From NCBI GenBank assembly GCA_040954595.2, contig CM082585.2, forward strand, positions 8,815,649 through 8,879,648: DNA of 64,000 nucleotides, read 5' to 3'. The stretch is from Balanoglossus misakiensis (Eukaryota; Animalia; Hemichordata). The number at the start of each line of letters is the position of its first letter. Positions within the stretch are counted from its first letter, which is position 1. The position numbers and the translations under genes were made by a program. The notes beneath the pieces are model-generated. The model had not been told where the DNA came from, ran no database searches, and saw only the letters and a list, made by a program, of their open reading frames with translations. Shown piece by piece: positions 19,779-64,000 of this stretch.

Positions 19779-20594
19779 CTATATTTCAGTTTCCTTCGTG
19801 TCTGGTTTGATTCGCCTGTCCCACATGTCTCTGTATAGCGGTTTGCTCGATTCGATGCTGGCTCTGACAATCGGTGGGAGTTTCGCCACGTTGACGGCAC
19901 CAACAGACGACAGGGCGAAATCGAAACCCGTACTCTTGAGGGCGTCTTCGTACATGAACGTTGCGTCCTGCAGGGGCTCCGGCCACGACTCGATCTTTCC
20001 GGCGCCGGAGTTCCACGTCAGCATGCTGTCGGAGTACTTAATGCCGACCGCGTCGCAGTACTTTCTCAGAATCTGTCCCGGAAAACGGATGAGATCATCG
20101 GAGTCGATGACGACCGGGTGCTGGCCGGTGACCTCCGAGACATACTTGTAGAGGTCGTACAGTTCGTCAACGCCGGACATCTGAACTGTCCTCTCGTCCG
20201 GTCGGCGGGACTCGGTGCCGCAGAACACTTTGTACAGCGACGCGATCGATTTCTCCGGGTTTCTGATCAGAAACGTGTGAGTAACGCCCTTCGGTAAGAC
20301 GCTGAAGTTCCCCTGAAGGCTAAAAGCCATCTCCTTGGCGAACACAACCGACTTGTCCGGGTCGCATCTCTCGAGCTTCGACTGGATCTCGCGATAACTG
20401 AATTCGGACAACCCTTCGTCTTCTTCGTCCATGTCCTCGTCTCCGAAGAGATACGACGCGTAAAAGTTCTCGTGGTGCACGACGGTAGACTTCTGCGTTG
20501 CCATGGCGAACTCCACGGGCAAGGAACGCGTGCGTGGGTACGACCACAAAATCACGCGAGTTTGCCTCACGTTTATGTCGTTCACGCTGGCCAT
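19779..20594 (-). CDS. P-loop sulfotransferase-like protein (family often annotated branched-chain aminotransferase-like, N-terminal domain only)
   Basis: 271-aa uninterrupted ORF with LWSYPRTRS, FAKEMA, HTFLIRNPEKSIASLY, PVVIDSDDL, YCDAVGI..DSMLTW and ALKSTGF; high GC3. Probable 5' UTR intron just upstream (~20627-20857). Confidence 0.88.
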   Translation of the reverse strand: MASVNDINVRQTRVILWSYPRTRSLPVEFAMATQKSTVVHHENFYASYLFGDEDMDEEDEGLSEFSYREIQSKLERCDPDKSVVFAKEMAFSLQGNFSVLPKGVTHTFLIRNPEKSIASLYKVFCGTESRRPDERTVQMSGVDELYDLYKYVSEVTGQHPVVIDSDDLIRFPGQILRKYCDAVGIKYSDSMLTWNSGAGKIESWPEPLQDATFMYEDALKSTGFDFALSSVGAVNVAKLPPIVRASIESSKPLYRDMWDRRIKPDTKETEI

Positions 20595-22794
20595 TCTCCT
20601 ATTCTTCTATTATAGTTCCCAACACCTGGATTCGTGAAAACAGACACATACATCATGAGTAATTGTACCCAAAGAACATTTAATGACGTCACATCGATCA
20701 CAAGTGCGTTATTCAGAACAAGACAAGGGAGGTCTGTTCCTCGATTTGCTTTGAAATGTTTCATGGAGACAGAACGGCAATCTGTCAAACATTCACACGG
20801 AGACGGCTGTATTACAGCATTTTGGACAGAAGGCCTCGTTAAGCGTTGTGCATATACCTTCACCTTGTAACCACCTGTTAGATCACGCGAGAGTAGCTGT
20901 GGAAACGCCCCTTGCATCATGGAGGTGAGGGCGGTGTCCCCGTGTGGCGCTTGCAGCAGGGTCACTCATAGCTCAGCGGTCAACCACCAAGAACTTGACG
21001 ATGACGTCACAAGATACCGCCCTCACCGCCATGTAAAGCGGCGCTCCCATGCGACCTCGTTGGCACATAATTTTGGTCAACCTTTTGCCTTGAAGCGCTA
21101 AAAGGGGTCAGCCGCGCAGATAGCGGGTCATCTGGGCCATCCTTCAAAGGGCTGTGGACCCACCATTAAAAACATGGCCTCCAAACGCCCACCCGCAGAT
21201 GCCAACTTTAATCTTTCTTTCCATATTGGATTTCTCTCCTTTCTGGTCTGGACAGCATCTCCTTTTTAGGGCGATGGCAATAATTGGATAAACAGCGTAA
21301 GAAGGGTAGTCAGAGGAGTGTGTATGTCTACTTAGTTTAGCATTTTCTAGGTCATTTCCAGGGCCTTGTTTATCGCCTGTCGACCTCCAGTAACCCCATT
21401 TCGCGGTTGCTGGTAAGGGCAGTAGTTCGAGTCGATTCCAATTGTTTTTGGACACAAAAAGACCACTTAAAGCGCATTACATAACGGATAATGAAAGACA
21501 AAACAGTAGCTTCTGTGTCTTTATTTAGCGTCAGCACCTATACTCGTAAACTTGTTCTACATACTGGTATATTGATGTCAATACTCCAGTACAACCAATT
21601 TTATATTCAATTGGAGATACCCTCGTGAAAAATCGACGCATGTTGTTCGTATGTCAGACGGGAATTAATTTATGGTAGTTTGGGCGCGGTCGGGTCACAT
21701 CGCTTTTCTAGACCCGTAACAAAAATAATGATGATACACAGTATTAGAATCACTAGCTGCATCATTATCTGATATTTTTTAGTCTTTTCTGATGATACTT
21801 GGTCAATAAGAGTAACTTATAATCTCACAAAATATGATTTTGATCATAAATTATGATAATTTTTCTGTGGACATATTTATATTTATAACTAATATGCAAC
21901 CAAGTGCGCGCATGCGTTCAGTGTAAAAACCTAACTTTTATGTCATGGATATTTTTTTTCTGAACCGCAGTAATTATTATGTTTGGCACGTGGTAGTTCA
22001 CATAACGCGGTGATAAATCTTGAGGTCCGACAGCAGAGTCGTGTAACTGGAATGTCAGTCCGTCGTATGTTGTTTGCAAGGCGTGCAATGCTTACATAAT
22101 CAGATTTGTTACAGATCGAATATTCTGAAACATAGGGGATATATTTAGGGCCATTATGTCGTTATCAGTTGAGTCAGGGATGAGGTGTGTCCTGCTATGT
22201 TTATCCATGGACGTAAAAAGAGAAGGACTTAGGACTGTCCATTGAGCTATTGTTCAGGTGATGGTTGCCGCCGCTCCGTTATCTCCTAATACTCCGTAAT
22301 ACTTTAATCGGATTATACCCGTAATTTATTCAAGAGTGGGTTCGGGTACTATATTCGGTACTGTTCGGGTGTTTCCGTTGGAGTCAAGTGATCATATAAA
22401 CATCAGGCTGCATGGAACGCGCATGTGCGTGACCTTTGACTTTGAACCATCGAGGAGATTTGGCCCGTATGCACCAAATCTACGCTGAAAAAAACATGAA
22501 TTGCGTCTTTGGCCAAGCTGGTAGCTCTTGTCATGTAGTCCACAAATTACAACATACATTAAAGGTTTTATGCCGATCGAACAGATATTGTAGGCACCGT
22601 TTGGTTTACCGGCAATAGCACAGTCCAGGGTTTTATCAATGTCGCTAAAAATAGATTTGCGCGAGTGCGCATGCGTCCGGCAACAGTGAAATGCGGACAA
22701 AAGCGGACATTGACGTAGCATCGACTGAGCGAAGCACGTAGCGATAGCGTTGCTCTTTTTACTTTTAAAAACTTTGTTTTGGTTTACTTCCGCG

Positions 22795-23073
22795 ATGGGC
22801 GCTACTAAACATTGCTGTTACGGACATTGCACGAGTGACTCGAGGTACACCGATCGTGTTGAAATGAAAGATGTTTTCTTCATCCGATTTCCGAAGCCAC
22901 ATCGAAATATTTTGAAATGTCAAAAATGGATTTATGCTTGCGGGAAACAGGGTTTCGGCGTCGACAATGTCAAAAAGGACACCTATATTTGTAGCCTCCA
23001 CTTCGTAGGCAGGAAGGGACCAACAAGCGACCATCCCGACCCCATATCAATATTGCAAATATCTCTGGTATAG
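22795..23073 (+). pseudogene. THAP zinc-finger first exon of a truncated transposase
   Basis: MGATKHCCYGHCTSDSRY...FFIRFPKP...CQKWIYACG...YICSLHF...DP: C2CH THAP signature with the P, W and F residues. No catalytic domain follows. Confidence 0.85.
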
Positions 23074-23455
23074 TCATGTCAACAACACTACTTTTATCAG
23101 TAAGGACCTGTGGCAGCCCCCCCCCCCCCCCCCATCGCCCACACAGCCTAGCCCGTAGTTTATTTCCGCGCAGTATATTGCGTTGGTCTATATTTTTATC
23201 GCCTATTCGACACTTGATCTGAGAACATAAATAAAAAACACACCAGAGCATAACAACAACGTTTCGAAGAACGACGAGAGTGGACCTATAAACCGGGGTC
23301 GCGGTGCACAACATCGTTGGCGCGCATACATACGTGCAGACTACACAAACACAAGTGGGGAAATATTGAACAGGAAAATAATCTCACAAGAAATAATAAG
23401 TTTAACGATTTTTTTCTTGAAATTCTATTGCCTTAAATTCATTTCACATCAATAT

Positions 23456-23680
23456 TTAGTATGCCTGCTTCCGAAGAAGCCGGTCAATGCGGAAGTAAAC
23501 AATAATTACGATGATGAACTTGAATGAACTCATCAGCTCCACTTTTTTCCCACTTGTTTTTATACCTCTACATTTCAGCCACCTTTTAATTTGCTCAACA
23601 GAGTGCTTCTCAACAGATGCATATGCAAGCTTTGCACCAGGAACATTCAGTGAAATTGGTTCGGTCGACGCCGGCATCAT
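23456..23680 (-). pseudogene. SAP-domain first exon of a truncated transposon accessory gene
   Basis: VPGAKL...SVEQIKRWLKCRGIKTSGKKVELM fits the SAP pattern (L..WL..RG...SG.K.EL). Convergent with the THAP ORF. Confidence 0.75.
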
Positions 23681-23862
23681 AATGTAAACAAACAAAGCTC
23701 GCTCAGCGCAGCCAGCTGATGGGGCGGTCCTGGGGGCAATCGACGCGTACCCGCGACTTTGTCCGCATTTTCGAACTCATGAATATTCATTAGATTTTGA
23801 TGACGTAAACCCTGAACTGTGCTATTCCACTCGAAGTCGACGATTGTGGACGCGATCATTTA

Positions 23863-39800: not shown

Positions 39801-42800
39801 TGACGTCATGCGCAGAGCAAGTTTAAGTTTGCCATTTTCTGAGTCGCACACTTAAATCGGGATTTATATGACAACGGGAATTTGGATTCAGGTTTCCGAA
39901 TCTGTTGTAGAAAAACACGTTTACCTTTTCCCTGCATTCTGCTTCGTCTCTTGATGGTCCGCAGGAATTTGTTTTGGGTGTTTTTTTCCCTTGTTTTCAA
40001 AAACGCAATTCCCCACACACGGACAATGTTACCGTGAAGCCATGGCTGGAATGGCACCCTCTCAATTCGCAACATTCCCCAGACGGTTTGTGTGCTGTGT
40101 CGAGTTCTTTGACGACCGCGTTCAAATATTTAGGAAGGCCTTTAAAATAAATACCTCCAGGGGGAGATTTTGCTACCACCGCCACAATAAAAACCATGTT
40201 GCTGTCATGATGGTAAATTATGTACTGGTCTGACATCTGCTCACACGATACGGCCCAATGCCCAAAACGACATTTATCGTCGTAGGGCCGATGTGCATTG
40301 TTGTCCCTGTCGGGAATCTCAAAAATGCCGATGACTACTTGTTGCATGCTCGCTGCGGAAACGGGTTATTAAACAGGAATTTTTTGAGTGTTTTGGGGGT
40401 TTGTGTGCGCTCGCGTCCCCTTTCCTCGCGCAGCTACGGAGGCATCCAACTGTGATAGATAGATGTGGCAATTTCCGAACAGAAAATTTGATTGGCTGAA
40501 TGATTATCTGCAACGACAAAGAATTTTTACTCTTCAGCAACAGGTGGTTGTCACGGCCCGGCCGTCACGCTGTCTCTTCACCACCAAATAACTTTTTAAA
40601 CGTCGCTGATTTAAAATGATGGCTTCATTTTGGTCATCCTTCGACCTGTGTAGTCGCCGATGAGTCTGATATTTTTAGTGGGGCACTTCGAGAAAACTCT
40701 AAAACGTACAAACAATCACTTGAGATTCACTGTCTGTTTTGAGTGTGAGGTGATCCGCAACACTGGCCCTACTTGTCCTAAAATGCAAGCTGGGAGAAGT
40801 TCACGGTCGAACAGTTTGAAATAAAGAAGTTACAGAAGGCAAGTCGAGGAAGGAGTTTGCGGGACGTTCGCCCTATACACACAAAATAGAGTCGCGTCCC
40901 TATAAGTCATGTCGATCCGACGCTCTATTTGACACAGGTGCCAAACGAGGCTACCAGAGACCCTCTTTCCAGTCTGGTCTGCGGCTGTGCAAACTTGCTA
41001 CCCGAGATTCTGGCCAATTTCCAAAACCGGCAATCCCAAAATACTTTTCCACGGTGTATTAGCTCTAGATCTGAGGGACAACTACTTGGCCACGAAAATT
41101 CTTCCGACTGAACTGACCCGAGAGAACGCATTCCATTTGAGAAAGAATTGCAAATTTGCCACTAAAGCGAAATTTTTGCGTTGAAACTGGTGACACCTGT
41201 AGGTCACACCAGTTTGCGAGGGGATTTACCTGAATATGGGCACGCATCCAATAATACTGAACCCCGTATACTGACAGAGTTTCCGATTTCACTCTGTTTA
41301 CCCTGTGATTTAAACAACAGAAGGTATTAATTGACGAGAAAACGTCCCCTCTGTACGTCACACCGGGAGTGACTATACTTTGTTTGCGGTGCTGGGTCTC
41401 ACGAATATAATTTGAGCTTGAAAACTTGAGACCCCCGACAAGCAGCTCAAAATTCACAAATTACGCCAGTCTTTCCTTGGCTGTGTGATACGATTACTTT
41501 TACTGTAAACAATTAGAGATAGGGCGAGGAGGTTTACTTACTGTTACGTAGGTTACGTTTGGGTATGTGCAAGACTCATGGCATTATATATGCCCCGTAC
41601 ATCAATAGAAAATACAAGGGGTAAATCGTTTTGCCAATCACATGCAGGGCCCATTACATCTGAATAACTGAATTCTAGTGGACCATGAAAGCTTCTTTTG
41701 GATTTTAATACGCCATATGCACTAACACTGGATGGATTGAACACCGTCTATGGTTAACTTGGTCGCTATTCTTGCAGCAACCTGCAGGGATTGAAAAGCC
41801 TGGCTTCCTGAATGACCTGGACGCCAAACAAGCATAACGGGTCGAACGCAGTCATTGCAAAACGATTTAACGATGCTTTAAAAATGTGCGAAATGGCGTG
41901 TAACAATGGACTGGAATTCTTTAGCCGGCAGGGGGGTTGCTTTCCAATGTCGCATGGTGGCGCTAACATAGCAACGAAAGCTCTGGTCACCCATGGTTAT
42001 AAGTACATGTAATACAGCTGTATTTCTCGAATATCGCACTCACGCCGTTTCTCTTTATATTTATCGTTCACAGGAGGAGAAGAGAGGCCGTCGGTCCTAC
42101 CGCTGTATCTCGTACAATACTGCGCTTCGGACGTGGTCAGCCCCAAAATCTTCGTCTTCATCGCCTCTGTCCAGCAGGCCTTCCAGGTGAACGTGTACTT
42201 CTGTCAAAAGAGGGCGAAAGCCGAGGCGTTGACGGTGGCCTTCGCCAAGTGTTTCAAGCGCGCGTACAGAGACTGGGAGAGCAGGGCGCGTGAACAGTCG
42301 GACAGACAAGGCCACATGAGAGCAAGGAATCCAGGTAAGGGAACGAGGATGGGACCATCTCATAATTGTTATCCTGAAGTATGATGTCCACTTTGTTTTC
42401 GAAGCATACATAACGGTGCTCTTAAATTGAAAATAAGATTGAACGAAGTCACATCGTGTTAGTTATCTCTTGCTAAATACAATTCAATCATCATTTGTGC
42501 GTGTCTCTCTCTTTTAGCAGACTATTCGCGGGGACTTCCGCCGAGCCCGACATCCTCTGGCGGCAGCAGCACGCCGCCTTCCCCGCAGTCGCCGGACACC
42601 CCGCGCTCCTCCGAGGAGGCGCCTAAGAAGAAGGCCATCCAGGTGTTCGACATGTACAGCATGAACAATGTCTTCGCCAAGCGCAAGACCCTCAGCAAGA
42701 AACCGGAGTTCCTGAAGATCGGAAACGACTACGGCACCCTGTCCAAAAGCAGTGACGTCAGGAAGTACTTGGAGTACGGGGACTACGATGTGTCGCCGGA

Positions 42801-42837
42801 CGATCCCGAAGAGGAATGGTCCCAGTACTCGTATTAA
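33858..42837 (+). CDS. PTB/PID-domain adaptor, LDLRAP1(ARH)-like
   Basis: Exons 33858-34140, 42074-42334 and 42521-42837 (NAGNAG acceptor) join in frame: MTFYAQHLG...ISVSSKYITV...LYLVQYCASDVVSPKIFVFIA...YFCQKRAKAEALTVAFAKCFKRAYRDWE. Followed by an S/P-rich linker and VFAKRKTLSKKPEFLKIG. First intron is 7.9 kb. Confidence 0.85.
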
Positions 42838-44600
42838 AGGGGGAGAGGAGGGGGAATCGAGAGATAACCGGACATCACGAACTCACAGAAACTGAGCATT
42901 ATCATGGTGCTAGAACGTCACAACGTGTGTAAATACGGGGAAACTGTTTTCTATATTACTGCATCGGTCGTCGCTTAACTCGTGGACTGTGAAAACCAGT
43001 GACGTAAACACTTATGCCCTTTGAAAGTATCAGAAACCACCATCACCACAACACGTGAGGCGGGTTGGATCACGGCTACTCAAGGTTTTCTGACACCTCG
43101 AGTATCTACGGATGATAACCTGGCTTCAAGAACCTCAAAGGGAGGCCTTGTGATTCTAACGACGGACAATTTGGCATTCACTATATTGTAAAATGGACAT
43201 TTCTGGATTCCCTTGTCAGCCTATTTATTTTTTTAATGAATCATGTACATTGTAATTCAGAATTGAAAGTCGAGCGTCGTTTCTATTTAAAATTAGAAAT
43301 ATAGAGGGCAGTAAAATGTTGGGAAATATATGCTTGACAACACGTCTTCTCTTGATACAGTTATTATGTGTTACTATAAAGGTAATAATATAATATAGAG
43401 TTAGGCCCTAGTACAGATCCTATTTAGAGCAATTATAGCATAAGATTGGAATTCTATGCCAAATTTATACATATTTTGGGGGAACCTATTCGTTCTTATA
43501 CACATGACAATTTAGACTCATACGTGTCAACATTATATTTATATTTCTACGCCGTTATTTACTGTAATGTCAACACTGACAATTTTGGGTCTAAAGGGTA
43601 TCATTTTATTTCTCCGATGTGAAACTTCTCTTGTCAGTTTAGAAGTAGGCGTTTGTTGCCAAGCTAGTAAACATATGCCGATCCTCATATTATAATATAA
43701 CGATCATTTAGTATGTTTTGTTAAGCTTTAAGTTTCTTTTCAGTTTTCAAATATCTATAGAAGCATTTGTCAGTACACAAAGAATTCGTAAAACAGTAAC
43801 GCGAACATTACCAGCGCCCCCAAGCATTGAAATCAACGTTTTGGTTCAACAACGTCTACCTCTCTATCCGGGTCTTTTTCTTCACTTTGCATATTACCTT
43901 GTCACTTTTTGTATGGATGCATTTACAAATATGTTATTTTACTTTAAGCATATTCCATTACTTTTATTTGTCATTTTACCAAAAGTTGTCAAACACAATA
44001 AACGAATTTTATTATGCAATCTTGCTGGTTAGTAGTCGCGAATTATTTGAAAGGCGACGATCGATATCGTCTTTTGCGCATGTGCCAAACCACAGACTCC
44101 ACTTGTGAAGTGCTCGTATCATGATCCACCCAACCTTTGGTACATGTATCTGCAAAGCTGCGCATCCTCTGTAAAAGGACAATGTCATATTTCGGGGATG
44201 GTAAGTACGCCTTTACTGACTGTCCATTAATGCACGTTAATAGTTCGCTTACTCCTCACAACAGTCAATTTGAAAAGGGATGCGGGTACTCTCGTCTGCC
44301 ATTTTGATAACAGGAAGTGACGGATGTATATATTACGTAAGTATCAATGCATCCTTGGAAATCTGGGATGTCCCAAAAGAACGCACCGGGTGAACCTGTC
44401 ACCTGTTGCACTTAGTAATATAATGTAAATGATGTGTAATATGTCAGGGCGCCCTCAACGACTCGAAACGCATAGTATTTGGTTTCATTCTGGTGTTTGT
44501 ACTTGTCCCGTGACAAAAAGAGGTTGACTTTAGTTCGTATGTTCATTGTCGTTATTACGACAGCGTGATAGTGCTGTTAATTTTCTTGGGGCGAGCAGAA

Positions 44601-45200
44601 ATGACGTCTGCGACTGACGAAGTCGGGAGCTTCGAAGTGCAGTATCTGGGAATGGTGGAAATTCTACACACCAACCCGCACGGCCAGGGCTGCGTGGACA
44701 AAGTTGTGGACCAGCTTGAACACAAACTGCGATCCGGTATCATCATTCCGAAACTGATTTTGGTGCCGTCGGGTCGGGGACTGGACGTGATCGACGTCAC
44801 GACGAAGCGGGAGGCGTATTCCGCGTTTTACCCGCTCCAGAGTATATCCCATTGCAAGGCGGACAAGAGATATTCTCGGGTCTTTGCGTGGACGGTAGTG
44901 ACTTCGGAGCGGTCGAAGTTCCACTGTCACGTCGCGGCCTGCTCTGATAAGGAGCAATCGCAAAAATTGGCCATTGCAATGAGCCACTTCTTCGCGGCAT
45001 CCTCGAAGGAGCGGAAATCACCCGGCGAGAGCCGCGGCAACGGTCGGTCACACCCGCCCGACGAAATCGGCGGGCGACACGACCACGACGGGAACGCAAA
45101 CAGCGTACCGAGCGACGGAGAAGCGCAGCGGAAAATGGCGAGATTACTGTACGAAGCGGAGCAAAAAACTTCATCCAAGATGCGAGATAATCATAAGTAG
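44601..45200 (+). CDS. Intronless PTB/PID-domain protein, FAM43-like
   Basis: FEVQYLG...GQGCVDKVV...YPLQSISHCKADKRYSRVFAW...FHCHVAAC...SQKLAIAM: PTB pattern with the GxGCxD and VFAW motifs seen in FAM43. Confidence 0.82.
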   Translation: MTSATDEVGSFEVQYLGMVEILHTNPHGQGCVDKVVDQLEHKLRSGIIIPKLILVPSGRGLDVIDVTTKREAYSAFYPLQSISHCKADKRYSRVFAWTVVTSERSKFHCHVAACSDKEQSQKLAIAMSHFFAASSKERKSPGESRGNGRSHPPDEIGGRHDHDGNANSVPSDGEAQRKMARLLYEAEQKTSSKMRDNHK

Positions 45201-47797: not shown

Positions 47798-50700
47798 ATG
47801 GAAAGAGAGAAGGCGCGACGATCCGCCCCGGTGGTGTACAGGGCTTCGTGGTTGTTCGACTGGTATCGCGCTCAGGAAGACCGTGAAAACTCAGCCAGGT
47901 AAACAAGTTTTGCGGGAAATTTTTATTGGTGAGAACGTCAACCTCTTATGTGTGTTACAATCGATGATTGGCACACGTAGAGACATTTTATCGAATTTGA
48001 CGCTCTATCTCTCGACGTGATGCGAAGGTTAAATGGAGCAGAAGAACAAAGATAAACTTTGTTATCGGGTTGCAACAAGTCCCCGATGGACTAGTGATCA
48101 AGTAGGGTCATTTTTTTAAAAATGACGATAAGATATATTTCAGAAAAAGGTGTCAATAAAGTGATAGTTACATGGAAAGCTAGAATAGATGATTTTCCGC
48201 ACATTGTGAGATCTCGCGAGACCAAGTACTACAAGTCGGGGTTTGCATGAAAGTAGGATAGGTTCAGAGTTTAATGAAATAAATCCAAATCTAGTGCAAC
48301 ACGGTGGGGCATGTGCGGTCAAAGCGTTCCGCGAATATGTGATTAAAAATGACGACATACTATTATCATGCAAATTAACCCTGGTCAATTATGGTTGTTT
48401 GTTTGTTTGTAGGCATTCATTTGAAAGTGTTCTGCCACCAGACGCCGACTGGAGCGTCACATCTGCGAGAAAGATGGAAAAGAAACGGAATAACGATTTA
48501 ACGACGGTGGACGTATCCCGTAAGGAAGGCGGGAAGGACGGAGCCGGCCAGGAAGGTGCCCAAGCGCCGCCTTCGGATCTGGGCAAACTCGTCAAAGAAT
48601 TCGCGTCCTCCACCACGGCGCACGGCGTCTCGCTCATCGTCGCGTCGCGGAGCGCGTCCGGGAAACTGTCCTGGACGCTCATCGTCTTCGCCGCGCTCAC
48701 CGCATTCACCATACAGACGCTGTTGCTCGTCTTTCAGTACCTAGAGTTCAACGTCAACACCAAGGTAATACATTTTTTTCATCCTTTGTTTCTGGATTTT
48801 GAATCGCCGATAAATATATTGTGGGCGGATGAACTCGAACACCGTCAAAGTGAACTCTACCAAAAGATTTATTTTCAAGATGCGGGGAAGTTTTGACAAA
48901 AGATGAAAACAGTTTTTCATGGCAAATTACATCATCCAATTTACTCCGATATGAGATGTATTGGTGGCAAGGTCTCCTTGAACAGTGGGAACAATGCTGG
49001 TAGTGTGGTTATAAGCATAAAAGTCGCACATGTGCAGTTCAGACGAACCTGCCCCTTTAAATGTCATTCTGTGCTGTGAAGTATTTCGTGACCACATTAT
49101 ATCTATACATAGGCTTCACAACCACATCGTGTACGCAGTACTTCAAAGCTGCTGGTCGGAAGGATTGTGAGCAAAGTAAAGACGGGGATATGTAATAAAA
49201 TCTGCTGTTCACCTTTATAATTTTATATTATTAACAATCTTTTAGATCCATGTTGAGGAATACTAGTTAACAATTCGGCTGGGGGGATCGAATGAACCAA
49301 TCTTAGTCTATCGTGTATTTTCAACATGCGCCTGACTCAAGGGACACATAAGCGTAATGATTAGGCAGAACTTCGAAATTAATGTGAAGATTAGTTGATA
49401 AATATTACTTATAGGATTACGGCCGTTTGAGCTTAATATATATTCACTGATATTGTCATTAGATAAGGTATGGCAGGAAATGAAAATATTACATCTATTT
49501 ACAGGGTCTTATGACCTTGGAGATTATCTCCAAATTAATATTTAGAATTCCCCAATGGCAACTGAGCGCGTCAATCCATCAATGCGATGTCATCGATTAC
49601 ATGAATAGTGCAGGCTTGTCTTTTGAAAAGAAGAATGTCGTATTTTGCATGTTGTATTTCTATTACCAGTTACTTGAGATAATGTTTTACATTGGATCAT
49701 TATCAAATGACTATATATGGTTATTTTAGATGATGAGATTCATGCTTGCATGGGCGCCACAATGTAATACGGTGAGGTAACCGTTTTGTTGTCCGTTTTT
49801 CCTTGAGTTTTGGATGTCCTGGCGAGCACGACCTTTTCGAATACCATAAGTACACAGTGCAATGAGGGCCAGCGTCATCGATGCCTTTCTACTGACTGCA
49901 CTCACGCAACTTTTCTGTTCTGAAAACATTCATTTATTGGGATGTTTTTGACAGGTTCAACTGGTGAGCGCTCATGAGCGTCCCTTCCCGAGCGTCACCT
50001 TGTGTAACACGAACAAACTGCGCCGCTCTGTCGTGTTGCGGTCCGACTACAGAGAGCTACTGGCTGTTGACAGTCGCCTGGTGGTTCCCCATTACGGTGA
50101 GCTAAAGATTCAAATTAACTTGTCCGCCTAGCCTTGTCTTGTCTTGTCTAAGCTCACCTACATTGTATGCTAACTATCACATTTGGTTTTCTCTGGCGTT
50201 GTAACCCCCAGGGCCTTGCTCCGATCACGACTTTCAGTGCGGAAACGGCACATTCTGCATCAGAAAGTATCTGGTCTGTGATGGTGTCAATCATTGTCTG
50301 GACATGAGTGACGAAGAAGGCTGTATCTATGGTAAATATGTGTGACGTCACGCCGGGATTTTGAAAACGGGATCTGTGGATAATTTGAATTTTTCAAATT
50401 CAGAATTCAGAATAAAACACCCGAAAAACTAAATCGATCTCTCGCCCTGGACAAGATCGATCGATGACGTTTAACAGTCGACGGTGATAAGTTTGTCTGG
50501 TCGTCGGGTTCATTTGATAGAAGTCAGGAGGCGAAAGGATGAATAAAACGGGAGTAAATATCCGGAAAAGGAATGTTTGGCAATTTAAAAGAAAGGCAGA
50601 CCGGATCAATACTGTCTGAATCAGTTAATTGCGTGTATTCTATTTACACTTTATTTTATCGCCAGACATCTAATTGTTTGTTTTTTCTTTCTCTCGTTTT

Positions 50701-53522
50701 GTCACTTATCGCCAAGAACGTTTATATCTTTTCTCAGGGCAATGTGGTGATGGACAGTTCAAGTGCGAAAGTGGAAGCAACTTTGGATTTTGCATCGACA
50801 AGGATTTAGTATGCGACGGGAAGGCTCACTGTTATGGCGGAGAGGATGAATATAACTGTGGTATGTCTGTTTGTCTGCCCACCCTCTCTTCTGTTTGTCT
50901 ATTAATATACAGGATCAAAGGTCACCCTAATACACATATACAGTACTAGTACATGCCCATACATGGTAAAAGGTCGATCATTCGTAGAGCTCTTTTTTGA
51001 TTGGCTGCCTAACGGAAACCTTCCATGGTAACTGTGGCTAAATTTGCATAGATGACCATGTACTAACAAATTTCATCATTGGCATATGAACAGAAGCACC
51101 AAAATTGTACTTTGCTTTCAATTTATTTGTTGGCAACACGAATAATTATCGGTCGGATTTTGTTTTTGTTTTTTTCACATGTTTACTGCTGGACTTCTGA
51201 AGAGTGTTCCAGTACTCAGTTTCAATGTGAGTTCACCAAACGATGTGTTTCCAGAAACTACATGTGCGATGGCGTCTTTGACTGTACTGACGGAAGCGAT
51301 GAGTTCAGCGATCAATGCAGTAAGCCACGTTCCTACCTATCACAGTCCCTCCATTTTTAATACACTGCTAATAATATCTCCAGCATGCATGTAAAGAGGT
51401 CCATTGTCAGACGGTGAATACACCACTAATCACAGTTATTGTTGGAACTGTTTTGATATTTCATTGCATAGTGTTAGTTCGCCGTTGTACTTTATTTGTG
51501 TCCTGTTGTATCACAAAGGAAGTACAGGGGTGACATGTAACCCTTGAACTTATTATGTAACACAGTGCAACCTTTGTACATGTACTTCCTTTGTGTCCTG
51601 TGGTGTCGCGAAGGAAGAACAACGGTGACAGTGTCTCAGTTCCACAGTTTCACCCTTGTGATTCCCCTGTGACACACTGTCACCCATTTCCTTCCTTTGT
51701 GACCCAGCTATTCGACCCTTTTCAGCGACGAACGAAGGGAATGTGGCCCTTGGCAAGGCGACCATCCAGAGCAGTACAGAGCTGTACGAGTCGGAGAAGG
51801 CTGTCGACGGCTACACAGAAGGTTACAAGCTGCTGCAGAGCTGCTCGGCCACACAGCAGGAGTTCGAACCCTGGTGGGCAGTTGACCTTGGCGATTCTTA
51901 CAAAGTTCACGAGGTCATAGTTTATCGGCAAGAGGAAAACGATTTTGACTATGGAGGTAATTTGGTGCCTTTTCCCAATCTCCGACACAGACTATGATCG
52001 CCGCCATCTTGCCTGTTGTTAGGACAGCACACCGTCTTATGGCATTCAATTTGACTGTATACATTTTTTTGTAACCAGCGTCTCTGGTTTGGAACATGCG
52101 CATAAGACGATCATGGCCCTTTAAGCTTTTTAATAATAATAACGCCACTGATAAAAATGATTGGTAAGGAGCATTTAATGTCCACAAACAATTTGTATCA
52201 CGGACATTACCAGGTGCAAGACTGTTGAACATCTTTTGATTGGTTTATATTCATCTGTAAAGGTGGGGGGCGTAGATTGACCCTGTGCTGGGATTTACAG
52301 AAAGCTTTCCCTCTGTATTGTGAACAGATGCCAACCAATACGGAGGCAGTGTCGTCGTCGGTTACGGCCGCGGAAAAGACGTCGTCGGCGAAGAGTGCGG
52401 CACGGACATCTTCTATTCAACTGGCCGGGAACTCTCGTCCAAGTGCGGACCAACCATCGGCCGGAACGTGCTGGTCATCATCGCTGGCACCGTCGATAGA
52501 CTGCGACTGTGTGAGGTGGAAGTTATGGCCTCTGGTAAGTTTATGGGCGGCCGTCCTCTCTCGAATACTGATGAACTCTTATTCCTAGTTGAGAGAACGT
52601 TTATTGTTCATAGACCAAAAACCCAACCCAACCGAGGACAATCAAGGTGGAAGAGTATTAGTACCAATCGTACCGAATCATTAGCATTGAACTTCATATT
52701 GTGTGTTTCCGCCCCGTTATGTTTACAGCAATGTGGGTCATCAACGCAGCCCTCCACATGCAAGCGGAGCAGAGCAGCGACTACGAAAACGCCACCACGG
52801 CGTCGCTTGCCGTCGACGGCATCAAGAACACCAACTTCTGGTCGTGGAGTTGTTCGCACACCGAGCTGGAGTTCGAACCTTGGTGGCGGGTGGACCTGGG
52901 GAAACTCTACACAGTCTACCGTGTGAAGATTGCCAACAGACAAGATTGCTGCAGTAAGTTGTTTGAAAGCACAACCTTTTCTCAACAGCTTCTCGCGTCA
53001 TATCTTCCGCAGAAAAAACAGTATTACCACAACTATTTCCATTTTACAGGTGACAGGTTGGCCAACGCAGTTCTAAAGATTGGAATGAGCAAAAACCTGA
53101 CATCGCAAGCGATCTTTGGCGTCATCACGAACGAACAGTTGTTGAACGACAGTTCGGTCATCACCGTGGCTGGCGAGTCGCCGCAGCTGGGCCGATACGT
53201 CAGCCTACAGCTCGTCAACCAGACGGAATATTTGCATCTGTGTGAGGTGGAGGTCTACGGAATACGTAAGTCGACATGGTCGCGTTATGTCTCATCCAAG
53301 ACGATTGCGGCCTGGGTCAGATCACGGTGGTCAGATGTGCAGCAAAGGCGACTGTCCTTTGAAATATTTCCACGTTTGTGTGACGTCTTTTGGAAAACTT
53401 AAAATAGATGGCTTCAACGACCACTTTTAGATTATGGTGAATTCGGTAAATTGTCATCCATGTAACTTAAATTTTAGATATTATGTTTTTCAGCCCTGCC
53501 GCTCTTATATTTGATGTTTGTT

Positions 53523-53558
<36 letters not shown>

Positions 53559-56500
53559 TTAACACATCCCTGTTATTTCAGCCTTCATAGATGACCTACC
53601 AAACGTGGCTTTGCTGAAGCCGGCAGAGCAAATCAGTATGAGCAGCAAGGGCGTCGCTTCGAGAGCCGTGGACGGCAATCCAAACAGGGACTACGTCGAA
53701 GGCCAGAGTTGCATACACACGAGACTAGAAAATGAGCCGTGGTGGAGGGTCGATTTGCTGGTCGAGCACCGGGTGTATCGTCTGTCGTTCGTCAATCGAG
53801 GCGAATGTTGTGGTGAGTCAGACGCCATGAAGGGTATCTGTGATGAGTTCAGAACAGCCGGACTGTAAAGAATGTCGATATTCAGACGAAGTACTTATGC
53901 GAAATGCGATTACATAATTCTATATAAATTAGCATACTCGATGGCATAATATCACATTTAAAGGGTGGCGATTGATTGGTCTTTGAAAACCACCAATCCA
54001 GAAGTAGAATAACTAAGCATGCGTATCTCTGTCAACCAACCAGGTGAAAGAAGCGATGGCGTCGTCTTCAGAGTTGGCACGAGTTTGCAGATCAAGCAGA
54101 ACCCAATATGTGGCGGCCCACTGGGAATGGACGACCTGTTTAAGCCCGTCCACCACGTGACCTGCCCAGTGCCCCTGATTGGCCGATATGTCACCGTGCA
54201 ACTGGAAGGCAAGGTGCAGTGGATGAACTTCTGTGAACTGGGCGTCCAGGGTGAGGGTAAGTATCGGGTCGGATCTTCTTTTCGACGAGAACCATTTTAT
54301 TTTTATTTACCATTTATTATATTTACCATTTTTATTTATATTTATAAGAATTGTTTTCCTCCGCACCATCTGCAAGTTTAAAATGCTAATTACAACCACG
54401 AGAATTTGTATATCTTCTACCCAGAGTATATTGATCACGAGTCTTCACTCTATCAAGTCAACCCGTTACCACACTTCGAAGAAATGGCAAACAGGATTTT
54501 AGTCGGCTCCCCCTCGATAGATTTCCCAATAATGTCTCTGGAGAAATGCGCTCACAAGTGTATGAAGACCAAGGATATACGGTGTCTGTCGTTCAACTAC
54601 AGAAGAGTCGAGAGACGATGTTCTCTGTTGGTGTCCAGTAGAGTTGGTGACAGCGCCACGGAGTTGTTGCCTCACGACGACTACAATCATTACGAGCGTC
54701 TGGCTGATGGCGGTTTGTATTGTTTTACTCTATTGTCTCTGTTCTGAGAGAGAGCAAGAGAGAGAGAGAGAGAGAGAGACAGACTGACTTCTGTTCACAA
54801 CATCAGTGAAAAAAATTATGTAGCTATGTCGTGCGAAATTAAAATAACTGAACAGCATTTTTGGAATGCTCTTATCGGTGCGAGTGTGCAATTCAGCGGT
54901 AAAATAGATAATGGCAATACTTTCTTTTGTTGTGTAGTTATCGACTCCTTGCATAACGGCACTTCCTGTCCCGGAGGATACTTCCGGTGTGGCTCAGGAG
55001 AATGCTTGCACGCTTACAGGGTGTGCGACATCTTTTCACACTGTGTAGACGGTAGTGATGAAATGAACTGCATTCACGGTACGTGACAATCGGGGTACTG
55101 CCATTTTTCGCACAAGTGGGTACTGTCTCGGACAATTGGTTCAACAGTTCTTCGCATCCCCTAAGGTTGAATTATAGATGAATACATTCGTTGGTTGCCG
55201 TTGCGACCATGTGTTTCCTAAGGTATTCCTACCCGCACAAAGCCAATCTCAAACTGCAGAGACAGGCGGCGTCTTCACATGCTGTTTTTACCTTTGGTCC
55301 CTGCTGATAGTGTAGAACGCGAACAGTGGACACCAATGCAAAGACAAAGACGCCGCCACATCTGATTTCAATCAAATTGGCACAAGGTCTGAAAATAAAG
55401 AATTCAATCTTATTTTGGGTGACAAAATACAGTCTTTTTTCTCTTGGCGTGGGTGGGGGGTGGGGCTCAACCAAAACTGACCATAACTACCACGTCTTCT
55501 TACCAATTATGTATTTCTTATCTTTACTTATAAAGACCATGAACCTCAAGTACCTCTGACGCCGTCCTCGCCCTGGTTCAAACAATTCTACAACATCACC
55601 GAGGACCCCGAGGTGTTCGAGCGCTTCCTGTCCGAATATCGCCCGAAGCACGAGTACCAGGACGTGAAGGGCGAGGACCCACCGGACTGGATGGGCTTCA
55701 AGTCGTACAGCCTGACCCCGGACTACAGCAACTTTGACGAGATACTCAAGCTGAACGCGGAGGAAATCCGCAAGCTCGGGCACCAGAGCCAGGATTTCAT
55801 CTCGCAGTGCTCGTTCCACGGAGCTGAATGCGACGCCAGGTAATGAAATGTTGAATATTTGAAGAGTTGGCCAGCACGCATGGCCACTCTGCACAGTGAC
55901 CGTGTACATGTACAAGCCTACACCTGCCAAATCCAGCGCCTGGTACCGCCACTTAGCAATGGCCTTAGATGGCCCTATCGCAATTCTCACTTGTCTCTTA
56001 AACGTGGTGTCTCGTTGATGTCGACGACGACCACCTTATAAACGATAAAGATAAATGGAACCCGTTTTGACGGTACATTAACCGACTGTCTGTGTACCCT
56101 GTCGTTTTCAGCGATTTCCTGACTTTTCAAGATCAGAAATACGGCAACTGTTTTACTTTCAACCCGAACGGAGACCGTTTTGTGAAAAACCAAGGAGCAA
56201 AACATGGTAATGTAACCTACATGGTTCAAAACCAATAAGCATTTTCGAGTTGAGTTCATGAATAATGAGTTGGAGCTGTCGTTTCCATAGCCACTGCACA
56301 TGCATCGGATGTATATCTTAATTTTAATCTATACTTTACATTGTGTGTAATTATGATTCGGACCATGAAAATGTTAATTAAATATTAATGCCGTAAGCTC
56401 AATGGACAAACAGTAAAGATTTTTATCACACTATTGGGAACAGGACGGTTAATAGACAAGTCGCAGTAGAGCCTGTCAATTTAGCTTTCTTGTTGTCAGC

Positions 56501-59358
56501 ACAAACATCTACAGATTGCCTACCTATTTTAAATGACCAAGTGTCTTTTAAATGACCCAGTGGTATTTCTGAGTTTTAAAAAATATTATCTATGCCTTAT
56601 AAAGCGCAATTAAGATAATACGGTTTCTGCTCGATCTACAGGTTTACAGTTGACCTTGTTCACGGAACAAGAAGAATACACAAGCGTCCATGGACGGGAC
56701 TCTGGTGTCCGAGTGATCATTGTGCCCTCCGAGATGACGCCGCTGCCCCAAACGGATGGTTTCACGATCACCCCTGGATCTATCACCTCAATAGCTGTCA
56801 AAGAAGTTAGTAATAGTAAACCCTTTCACCACTTTGGTTTGGTCCATATCCACTGTTTTCTATGGCAGAGGTGGACCTCTGTAGAGGGAACTGGGAAACT
56901 TAACCATTTTATCATAGAGAATTTCAATAAAGCCAATCGCAGATTTTCAGTGGGTGGCTCACGTGGTCACCCACCCGAGTGAAAACTTGCTATTGGCTCG
57001 ATCTCAACGTTTCTTTGTAACTGTGGTGAATTTACATATAGATGACCGTAAACACGTCTCTCTTGATGGCTAATCTTCTGATATTCTTACACAAAGTCTC
57101 AGCTTAAAAGGATGTACTACCCTTGGGGAAACTGCACATATGGCGAAACGGAAGACATTTTTAAGATTGATGGTTTTCAAAATGAATATTCAATACAGGT
57201 AAGCCTATGGCCGGCTTGGCTTGACCATATCGATAGAGATGGTCATTTCCTTCCCATTCATTTCACTTTATATGTCTATCGTGATTTGCTGGTTGTATAT
57301 CTCTCCCATCTTGCCTTCCTCCATTTATCTGTATAGACCCCTTTGTCGTCTGTTTTCATCTAGAGTCCGGGGAATGGCATCACAGAATGTTGATCACTTC
57401 GGACATAGGATTTTATAAGTGTAATAATGACCTGCTTATATATCTGTACACAGGCATGTGAAATCGCGTGCGTGTTGAACGCCGTTGAGAGGTACTGCAG
57501 GTGCACGGATTCCATTCACAGAAACGGCAGAGTGTGCAGACTAATGGACGAAGAAGAGGGTAAGCCATGTATTGTACACAGATAAAAATGGCGGCTGGTA
57601 GATCTATAGGAACGATGGTCAGAGCAGCTCATCAATTTTTTTTTTCAATGTACCCATTTAATTCTCCAACAGATCGCTGTAAGAACCTTATACATTACTT
57701 CGCAAGATATAACATGTTGCAATGTGACTGTAGGCAGCCGTGTAGGTGAGTTTTGCCTTCCAGATCGTCATGTGAAAGGCCATGTCATGTTATCGTTCAT
57801 TTTGAAAAGTAAATAATTCATGTGAAAATTTTCGATAATGGATGGCTTGATGAATTGTTCACCGGACTGAACACTAATTAACCAAATGTTAATCTTGTAA
57901 TTATCCTTCTCCGTGTCGCGTGAGTAATACATGTATTAGAAGTAAGCGCTGTCGGTGAAATTACTCTCCAATTGGGAGTGGTAACGTTATGATTGTAATG
58001 ACAATTATCAAAACAGTCGGCCTCTCTTTTTTTTTTCATTTTTCAAGGGAAAGGCAATTTTCCTTGACGATGTCGCAATCGCAGTGGCCGTCTGACTGTT
58101 ATCTAGTAAGTGTCACTTTTCGGAAGAAATTAAAAGTTGCGGCAAATCGTTTTGGATTATTTGATTCATGACTTGATTCGCGGGAAGAGACGCCGCCGGC
58201 CTTAATGGAAACGCGACAGCCCGCTTTGTGTGAAATTAAATTATACCTTTCACAGGTCTTAATGTGGACAACATATCTTCTTCGCTTTCATTTTCATCCA
58301 TGTGTGTCAAGCGACACTTCCATTTTCCTGTTGACGTGTTAGACGGAAAACATAATTAAGTATACATTTATCGTAAATGCTCGCCCATTAAGTGAAGTAA
58401 ATTATTTTTTCAGTCATATTTGATTACACCCAGCCATGATGTCGTTAATGTAATTCGACAATAATGTTATTGTGAATGAAGGAGACGGTGCCTTTTCATG
58501 GCAATAATCCAGACGGCTGCGTCTAATAACGTGTCAGAGGCTTATATGGCACCGTAATATATGTTCTAATTTTCGACGTGTGTCTGTGTATAAAAGCGGC
58601 GTTTGCTTTTTTAAGCTTTATAACTCATCAAATGTCAAAGTCAGATAAGTTATACCTTACTTTGTCCGAGAACAAGCGACCAATTTATTGAAAATAATTC
58701 TGTCGTTTCCATAGGAACACCTGCTACGAAGTATGCACAACAAAAATGATAAGACAAGAAATGTGAACGATGCCGTGTCTGCGAGGTGAGACGTTTGCAG
58801 ATTGATATATCTGTCTGGGTGTGTCGGTTCAAAAACAGATCAGTCCGCCTAACGAACCATCCATCCAACCAACCGACCGACCGACCATCCATCCATCCAT
58901 CCATCCTTCCATATGCATCTATGCGTTCCGTTTATTTAGTAAATTCTGACATCCTATATCACGGTCACTCGACACATATTAGTACATTTATTTTTCCCTT
59001 TTTCCCAGATCAAATTTTGTTCGATTGGAAGTATACCTAGAACGACTGAGCTACGAAGTAACATCCGAATACAAGGCTTATTCAGTAAGTGCAATCAGTG
59101 TCTATTAAATTCAAAATGGATCAATTACCCTACTCGAACATTCAGCTGTTTCGATGAAATCGTTGAAAGGTGACGATATTTCCCCCCGTTTTCTTTCAGT
59201 GGGAAGACTTGCTGAGCGACATCGGCGGCACACTCGGTCTCTACATCGGCCTGTCCGTCATCACGGTGTGCGAATTCATCAAGTTCTTCGTCGACCTGTG
59301 TCGCCACTGGTCCGGTACGAGCAATCCGAGCGAAGGGGTGACGGTCATCCAAACTTGA
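47798..59358 (+). CDS. DEG/ENaC channel subunit with LDLa x3, F-type lectin x3, PAN/Apple and LDLa modules inserted in the ectodomain
   Basis: Channel motifs [12 protein letters not shown]1, [48 protein letters not shown], thumb cysteines, SQWPS, LEVYL and TM2 [22 protein letters not shown]; stop 59356-59358. Eleven module exons between 50212 and 55078 splice in frame. First exon 47798-47898 is in frame (alternative start 48474). Confidence 0.93.
51486..51703. repeat. Tandem ~95-bp palindromic units forming two hairpins
   Basis: CACAAAGGAAGTACA (51512-51526) / TGTACTTCCTTTGTG (51581-51595) is a perfect inverted pair. Second hairpin 51605-51703 has arms GTCGCGAAGGAAG..GGTGACAGTGT / ACACTGTCACC..CTTCCTTTGTGAC. 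Confidence 0.85.
53519..53560. repeat. (TTTC)n microsatellite
   Basis: tttctttctttctttctttc... Confidence 0.9.
54745..54784. repeat. (AG)n microsatellite
   Basis: gagagagagcaagagagagagagagagagagagac. Confidence 0.9.
56817..56903 (+). mobile_element. piggyBac-like MITE, copy 3
   Basis: TAAA|CCCTTTCACCACTTTGGTTTGGTCC...TGTTTTCTATGG...GGACCTCTGTAGAGGGAACTGGG...TTAA, homologous to 2770-2862. Confidence 0.62.
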
Positions 59359-60729: not shown

Positions 60730-63950
<3,221 letters not shown>

Positions 63951-64000
63951 TAATTATCCATACATGTACACCATTCTTTAGATTGGAAATTAAAAACTCT

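Follow-up and report, generated by a model that had tools for sequence, protein, structure and literature searches.

A hemichordate DEG/ENaC subunit with LDLa, F-type lectin and PAN modules in its finger belongs to a family with interchangeable heads

DEG/ENaC channels are trimers, and the finger of their subunits is a gating site in both ENaC and FaNaC. The agonist of FaNaC binds to the finger, which in turn moves the thumb (PMC11026163; here and below, papers given by PMC number are cited for passages of their text rather than as wholes), and in ENaC the GRIP gating domain occupies an interval regulated by proteases (PMC6197857). Precedents for extracellular tethers come from shear sensing by ENaC through tethers of glycans and extracellular matrix (PMC6955349) and from the tether model of MEC-4 (PMC10148893); whether such tethers gate these channels is debated, one reason being that the tether is in most cases a separate protein, missing when the channel is expressed heterologously (PMC10148893). 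Here we analyse a stretch of 64,000 nucleotides from the hemichordate Balanoglossus misakiensis (assembly GCA_040954595.2, contig CM082585.2, positions 8,815,649 to 8,879,648, forward strand; hereafter the window), which carries at 47798-59358, on the plus strand, a gene for a DEG/ENaC subunit with a large cassette of LDLa, F-type lectin (FTP) and PAN modules inserted in its finger.

Rebuilt from the window sequence, the gene has 24 exons totalling 3915 nt and encodes 1304 residues; all 23 introns are GT-AG, and the only stop codon is the terminal one. The protein has the hallmarks of DEG/ENaC, two transmembrane (TM) helices and a large cysteine-rich ectodomain, with its two hydrophobic segments near residues 119-145 and 1264-1287, HG at 104-105, FPSVTLCN at 162, YGNCFTFN at 1014, and a 13-residue TM2 stretch containing a G-x-S filter (GLS). 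An exon-by-exon Pfam scan covering 20 of the 24 exons assigned ASC to exons 2, 3, 16 (weakly, E 0.077), 17 and 24, Ldl_recept_a to exons 4, 5, 6 and 14 (E 5e-12 to 1e-8), F5/8-type models to exons 7, 9 and 11, and PAN_1 to exon 13 (E 2e-10), with no match for exons 8, 12, 15, 18, 19 and 23 and a single faint, unrelated one for exon 10. Together with the match of its orthologue to ASC (PF00858, E 3e-76), these features bear out the original prediction of a complete DEG/ENaC subunit. The pore motifs HG and DIGG..GL..G.S are kept across the clade, identity to the two orthologues introduced below is 59/64 and 49/64 in the pore-lining and filter region, and conservation across 11 proteins is highest in LDLa1 (0.65, compared with 0.63 in the TM2 region). 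Across 13 sequences, no His is conserved between TM1 and FPxVTxCN, where we take the wrist His of ASICs to align. That residue is H73 in mouse ASIC1 (PMC10507113). At the other end of the protein, an aromatic cytosolic motif, YR(A/S)SWLF(D/N)WY (window 47837-47866, exon 1), is shared by the window protein with its two orthologues alone, within an otherwise divergent N-terminus, and is possibly a sorting or binding signal.

The cassette comprises 11 exons, as first reported, in the order LDLa-LDLa-LDLa-FTP-FTP-FTP-PAN-LDLa, which the Pfam and lectin searches reproduced. Its reported size of 2103 nt and 701 residues has to be corrected, since the exons sum to 2112 nt and 704 residues and alignment of the orthologues shows no gap of three residues. 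Nor does it start directly after the motif quoted at first (...KLRRS): the insert begins 22 residues further on, after residue 198, past finger helix alpha1. The assignment to the finger itself holds, as the insert follows alpha1 in structure models, and its interval is likely that of the ENaC GRIP domain. All four LDLa repeats exceed the Pfam cut-off and have six cysteines and an acidic D-x-S/E-D-E cluster, the PAN domain exceeds the PAN_1 cut-off and has four core cysteines, and LDLa4 is followed by about 90 more clade-specific finger residues in exon 15.

Every one of the 11 cassette exons is phase 1-1 with a length that is a multiple of three, the pattern expected of exon shuffling, so that a cassette-skipped form would also be in frame (600 aa). 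Two features of the introns were noted in addition. Beyond the exon 14 donor, read-through would end at a stop two codons on, and intron 14 (55079-55535) contains an AATAAA at 55394; intronic polyadenylation there would, speculatively, yield a pore-less, TM1-anchored lectin. Intron 9 (52954-53049), 96 nt inside FTP2, is in frame and stop-free, and its retention would add 32 residues.

Searching longer proteins with exon 15 returned three matches among 43 candidates: XP_070539351.1 of Ptychodera flava (1303 aa), a partial P. flava paralogue, and XP_077867809.1 of Saccoglossus kowalevskii (LOC100368436; 1303 aa). The two full-length proteins, both RefSeq gene models, align end to end with the window protein, and 24 of 24 window exons match XP_070539351.1 in order by tblastn. 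Identity to the P. flava and S. kowalevskii proteins is 482/704 (68%) and 382/704 (54%) in the cassette, and 379/491 (77%) and 321/491 (65%) in the channel core. Since independent RefSeq models in two genera are colinear with the window gene, an artefact of splicing or of a nested gene is unlikely; a nested gene would also have little room, because intron 3, ahead of the cassette, spans just 115 nt and the frame upstream of exon 4 stays open for three codons only. Thus, on the evidence of gene models, channel and cassette form one polypeptide, as had been proposed. No cassette-free isoform in the window clade was found among 18 matches of 30-715 aa and 138 sequences containing both channel halves, which is weak evidence, and none of the carriers of the PPDW-type finger motif among these 138 lacked LDLa between the halves.

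What had been presented as a single unusual gene is instead one member of a multigene family with interchangeable heads. A search with the C-terminal channel half gave 26 proteins in the range 716-2281 aa, out of 2776 candidates, and, out of 2875, a further 18 that were shorter; from a search of 50% clusters, we took the best 150 of 4992 matches and Pfam-scanned 60 picked by rank and length. In a set of 196 sequences (195 proteins and the window protein), both channel halves are present in 138, with at least one LDLa between them in 55 and an F-type lectin in 18, namely the window protein and 17 proteins from P. flava and S. kowalevskii, which include four isoforms of a single gene. Among the first 30 cluster matches scanned, 27 have extra modules (LDLa arrays, kringle, SRCR, CUB, TSP1, ShK, HYR, F5/8), while most of the second 30 have ASC only; named carriers are the hemichordates Ptychodera, Saccoglossus and Glandiceps and the echinoderms Anneissia, Patiria, Acanthaster and Amphiura.

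A tree of 53 selected rows, based on the core downstream of the finger only (P0037, without an anchor motif, was dropped and the partial P0002 left out), places 13 lectin-headed rows, 12 from RefSeq and the window protein, on one side of a branch with support 100/99, and other trees gave a similar result. These are enclosed in a group of 35 modular hemichordate-echinoderm rows (98/96), and the window protein and its P. flava orthologue are a sister pair (99/92); with a midpoint root and no reference ENaC or ASIC rows, the tree shows grouping, not direction. Across the 35-row clade, the heads at the same site are LDLa arrays, kringle/PAN, CUB, TSP1, SRCR, ShK and HYR, and there are many paralogues per genome. 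Moreover, RefSeq isoforms of one P. flava paralogue (P0010 cluster) lack LDLa3, LDLa1-2 or LDLa1-3, and a Patiria pair (P0056/P0181) differs by one LDLa, which suggests that heads are also varied combinatorially by splicing.

Other finger inserts turned up in the same searches. Four hemichordate DEG/ENaCs (P0011, P0013, P0016, P0017) have PAN and four or five kringles in the finger, resembling the module set of plasminogen and HGF. Amphioxus-type DEG/ENaCs (P0019-P0021, P0073, P0084, P0093) carry inserts of about 1000 residues (F5/8C, kringle, Link) and form a separate branch; their inserts were possibly acquired independently. A neighbouring branch (P0022, P0023 and relatives) has finger inserts of about 180-220 residues without a Pfam module. 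On placement with the ENaC side (clade B) of DEG/ENaC there are at best hints, from searches outside the trees, which had no such reference rows: P0022 matches ENaC beta best, and P0001 matches ASIC1 best.

The best solved-structure matches of exons 7, 9 and 11 are F-type lectins (FBP32, E 8e-12, 3e-26 and 4e-27), confirming the identity proposed for the three domains. The fucose motif of this family consists of a His followed by Arg-x-acidic-x4-Arg/Lys (PMC5712786). Counted in profile match columns only, with three domains partial and insertions ignored in a few rows, it is kept by FTP1 in 0 of 14 proteins and by FTP2 and FTP3 in 11 of 14 each, and every protein retains at least one site. In the window protein, FTP2 is canonical, FTP3 has Glu for Asp, and FTP1 is without the His/Arg/Arg triad; the cation motif h2DGx reads AVDG in all three, with Asn at the last position in FTP3 only. 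Because FTP1 lacks the triad in all 14 proteins, a trimer would have no more than six likely sugar sites, and the "up to nine lectin domains" first envisaged above the pore overstate the number. From their sequences, FTP2 and FTP3 are predicted to bind fucosylated surfaces, and retention of the triad in both genera suggests selection on such binding.

An AlphaFold2 model of the P. flava orthologue (residues 100-1287, alignment of 21 sequences) has a mean pLDDT of 66.7 and a pTM of 0.39. In it the TM helices, the palm and thumb and the barrels of the lectins take shape, whereas PAN is modelled poorly and no fixed arrangement of the modules emerges. Foldseek matched this model to ASIC1a (7e-25), FaNaC and FBP32 (3e-22), the ASIC alignments spanning about 300-350 columns. 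A Saccoglossus relative with two LDLa only, P0045, folds as a single DEG/ENaC (pLDDT 91.3, pTM 0.83; LDLa1 at 89-94, LDLa2 lower) and aligns with ASIC1 over about 550-600 columns, with a TM-score by target of about 0.73-0.77. The models thus support insertion into an intact fold for the family, though not for the window protein itself.

How might such a head act on the channel? We tentatively favour, with rather less than even confidence, a subunit that would work as a glycan-tethered cation channel, its head tethering it to fucosylated surfaces and loading the finger. The subunit would assemble as a trimer and conduct ions, FTP2 and FTP3 would bind multivalent fucosylated surfaces (those of mucus, the glycocalyx, microbes or gametes), and loading or cross-linking of the tether would be passed on through the LDLa base, with LDLa1 presumably docked at the foot of the head, to the finger; finger and thumb would then shift and change channel opening. 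A full-length model without a fixed module arrangement is what a flexible tether would give, and because several modules, loosely linked, separate the intact lectins from the body of the channel, tethering fits better than allosteric gating.

Several observations weigh against a glycan tether. In all 14 proteins FTP1 is degenerate, and FTP2 of the nearest orthologue is likewise without its His. F-type lectins are absent from most of the wider clade, so that a function shared by the heads need not involve sugar. Every cassette exon can be skipped in frame, and RefSeq isoforms of one paralogue are missing one, two or all of the three N-terminal LDLa, so that a head may be without its base. The annotation is imperfect, as shown by several RefSeq models that begin within the cassette or miss the N-terminal half (P0002, P0006, P0027, P0029-P0034), and the low pTM of the full-length model, taken above to fit a flexible tether, may only reflect its alignment of 21 sequences.

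Nearly as likely as the tether is a head that only anchors, clusters or recruits, either onto a glycosylated surface or by docking a protease or secreted partner, while the gate is opened otherwise, by proteolysis, peptide or ions, because most relatives carry protein-docking modules, not lectins. LDLa, SRCR, CUB, kringle, PAN and TSP1, the modules of the clade, typically serve for docking in extracellular proteases and receptors. The heads vary freely over a conserved core, and the insert is at the site where ENaC is regulated by proteases (PMC6197857). However, a furin-type site (R-x-K/R-R) is absent from the window protein and occurs in just 3 of the 14 proteins, and mere anchoring needs no insertion within the gating finger. 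Direct gating, in which a soluble fucosylated oligosaccharide on the lectins would act allosterically on the pore to open it, like FMRFamide in FaNaC, we regard as improbable. The agonist site of FaNaC is likewise in the finger, the triads are retained, and tandem F-type lectins form three-fold trimers that could match the channel symmetry (PMC5712786), but three LDLa and a degenerate lectin lie between alpha1 and the intact sites, PAN and LDLa4 separate those sites from the remaining finger, and the model lacks a rigid path. Still less probable is a non-conducting or modulatory subunit, whether a two-pass scavenger or adhesion receptor or a head donor in heterotrimers; an LDLa-rich ectodomain and the many paralogues would suit it, but pore and filter are among the best-conserved parts of the protein. 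Least credible is an artefact, a separate lectin gene nested in an intron of a channel spliced from 50096 to 55536, which could draw on the in-frame skipped form and on the stop and AATAAA after exon 14 but runs against the short intron 3 with its three open codons, the same fusion in RefSeq models of two genera, and the consistent presence of LDLa with the PPDW motif.

The tethered-channel reading matters for the debate on gating because the subunit itself contains the candidate tether, the class of ligand can be predicted, and point mutation could remove binding, making the tether question directly testable, and the family offers natural head-swap variants on one core. A bolder proposition, which we consider unlikely as a whole, is that acorn-worm and echinoderm channels of this type are "receptor-channels", in which exon-shuffled, alternatively spliced heads would set what opens a common DEG/ENaC pore, and in which glycans would activate the lectin-headed branch, so that contact with fucosylated mucus, microbes or gametes would lead directly to depolarisation. 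If glycans do open the pore, innate-type sugar recognition would be joined to fast electrical signalling in a deuterostome.

The architecture is already present in RefSeq under the name "uncharacterized protein". In the literature searched, which took in few subscription journals, we found no prior account of a DEG/ENaC with F-type lectin and PAN, in line with the novelty supposed at first. LDL and lectin terms do not occur in the available passages of six DEG/ENaC and FaNaC papers (PMC9949801, PMC9234716, PMC10507113, PMC9822975, PMC10148893, PMC11026163), nor lectin terms in those of two hemichordate genome papers (PMC4729200, PMC11175523). PMC10507113 mentions, in the part cited, uncharacterised ambulacrarian channels without domain detail, and PMC5712786, citing Bishnoi et al. 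2015, notes that F-type domain architectures are expanded in hemichordates; the lectin-channel fusion may be listed in that survey. The modular channel family is real and conserved and, apparently, undescribed.

Coordinates of the gene are collected in Table 1. In the window, tblastn with five query proteins found no second channel gene and no minus-strand copy. There is no DNA self-match among the lectin exons that would indicate recent duplication, and the repeats found are outside exons; two channel-gene intron segments (51986-52124 and 56819-56895) resemble dispersed short repeats at 7261-7393 and 2772-2849, respectively. Elsewhere in the window are XPG-type exons (minus strand), a dyskerin-type gene (DKCLD, PUA; plus strand) and, by eye, acyltransferase-like exons, the last without a Pfam match per exon (all within 300-14000); a single-ORF Sulfotransfer_5 protein (19779-20606, minus strand); fragments of THAP and SAP domains (22729-23776) that may be part of a transposon; and, within 42000-45200 (plus strand), a PTB/PID-domain ORF (44514-45200) and, by eye, another PTB-like gene upstream of it. 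The exons that close the window (63086-64000, plus strand) are, judged by eye, presumably DDX3/PL10-like.

Table 1. Exons of the DEG/ENaC subunit gene and the protein parts they encode (window positions)
Feature	Position	Strand	Description
Whole gene	47798-59358	+	DEG/ENaC subunit, 1304 aa, modular finger insert, 24 exons
Exon 1	47798-47898	+	Start codon; short aromatic N-terminal motif common to two orthologues
Exon 2	48413-48764	+	Cytosolic N-terminus, HG motif, TM1
Exon 3	49955-50096	+	beta1-beta2 (FPSVTLCN), finger helix alpha1; 3' end is the phase-1 insertion site
Exon 4	50212-50331	+	LDLa1; best-conserved cassette module
Exon 5	50738-50860	+	LDLa2 (Pfam)
Exon 6	51203-51319	+	LDLa3 (Pfam)
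Exons 7-8	51726-52534 (51726-51956, 52328-52534)	+	FTP1; fucose triad lost
Exons 9-10	52729-53265 (52729-52953, 53050-53265)	+	FTP2; canonical H...RxDCCxxR
Exons 11-12	53582-54256 (53582-53812, 54044-54256)	+	FTP3; triad intact, Glu replaces Asp
Exon 13	54425-54712	+	PAN/apple domain (Pfam)
Exon 14	54938-55078	+	LDLa4; cassette end
Exon 15	55536-55839	+	Rest of finger, clade-specific (GEDPPDW motif), up to beta3
Exons 16-17	56112-56805 (56112-56206, 56642-56805)	+	Palm, beta-ball (YGNCFTFN)
Exons 18-21	57097-58105 (57097-57198, 57454-57559, 57673-57745, 58048-58105)	+	Cysteine-rich thumb through WPS motif
Exon 22	58715-58785	+	Knuckle region
Exons 23-24	59009-59358 (59009-59084, 59200-59358)	+	Final palm strands, TM2 with GLS filter, short C-tail, stop

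Compared with known systems, the window protein is most like XP_070539351.1 and XP_077867809.1, named just "uncharacterized protein", with which it shares length, domain order and the N-terminal motif; it differs from the P. flava protein in that the latter has Gln for the binding His of FTP2, whereas window FTP3 has Glu for Asp. The amphioxus F5/8C-kringle-Link channels and the mollusc and acoel channels with one or two LDLa likewise have modules in the same finger interval but fall outside the 35-row clade and do not match the F-type lectin profile. Tandem F-type domains with calcium and fucose motifs are shared with F-type lectins such as eel AAA (1k12), striped bass FBP32 (3cqo), oyster bindin and Drosophila furrowed, yet these lectins are soluble or acrosomal proteins or single-pass adhesion proteins, and the passages cited describe none of them as part of an ion channel. 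In the core, ASIC1 and FaNaC are the closest matches in sequence and fold, and the ligand site of FaNaC is the finger, but the window family is without the conserved His between TM1 and FPxVTxCN, and the solved relatives are without lectin, LDLa or PAN. Vertebrate ENaC (alpha, beta, gamma) has the same DEG/ENaC fold, an extra domain after alpha1, the WPS motif and the G-x-S filter; its GRIP, however, is a small protease-cleaved beta-domain, whereas the insert here is a 704-residue series of shuffled modules in which no furin site is conserved. Finally, the touch complex of Caenorhabditis elegans MEC-4 likewise involves a DEG/ENaC thought to be coupled to the extracellular matrix (PMC10148893), but the link to the matrix is there made by separate proteins, whereas the candidate tether described here lies within the pore subunit.

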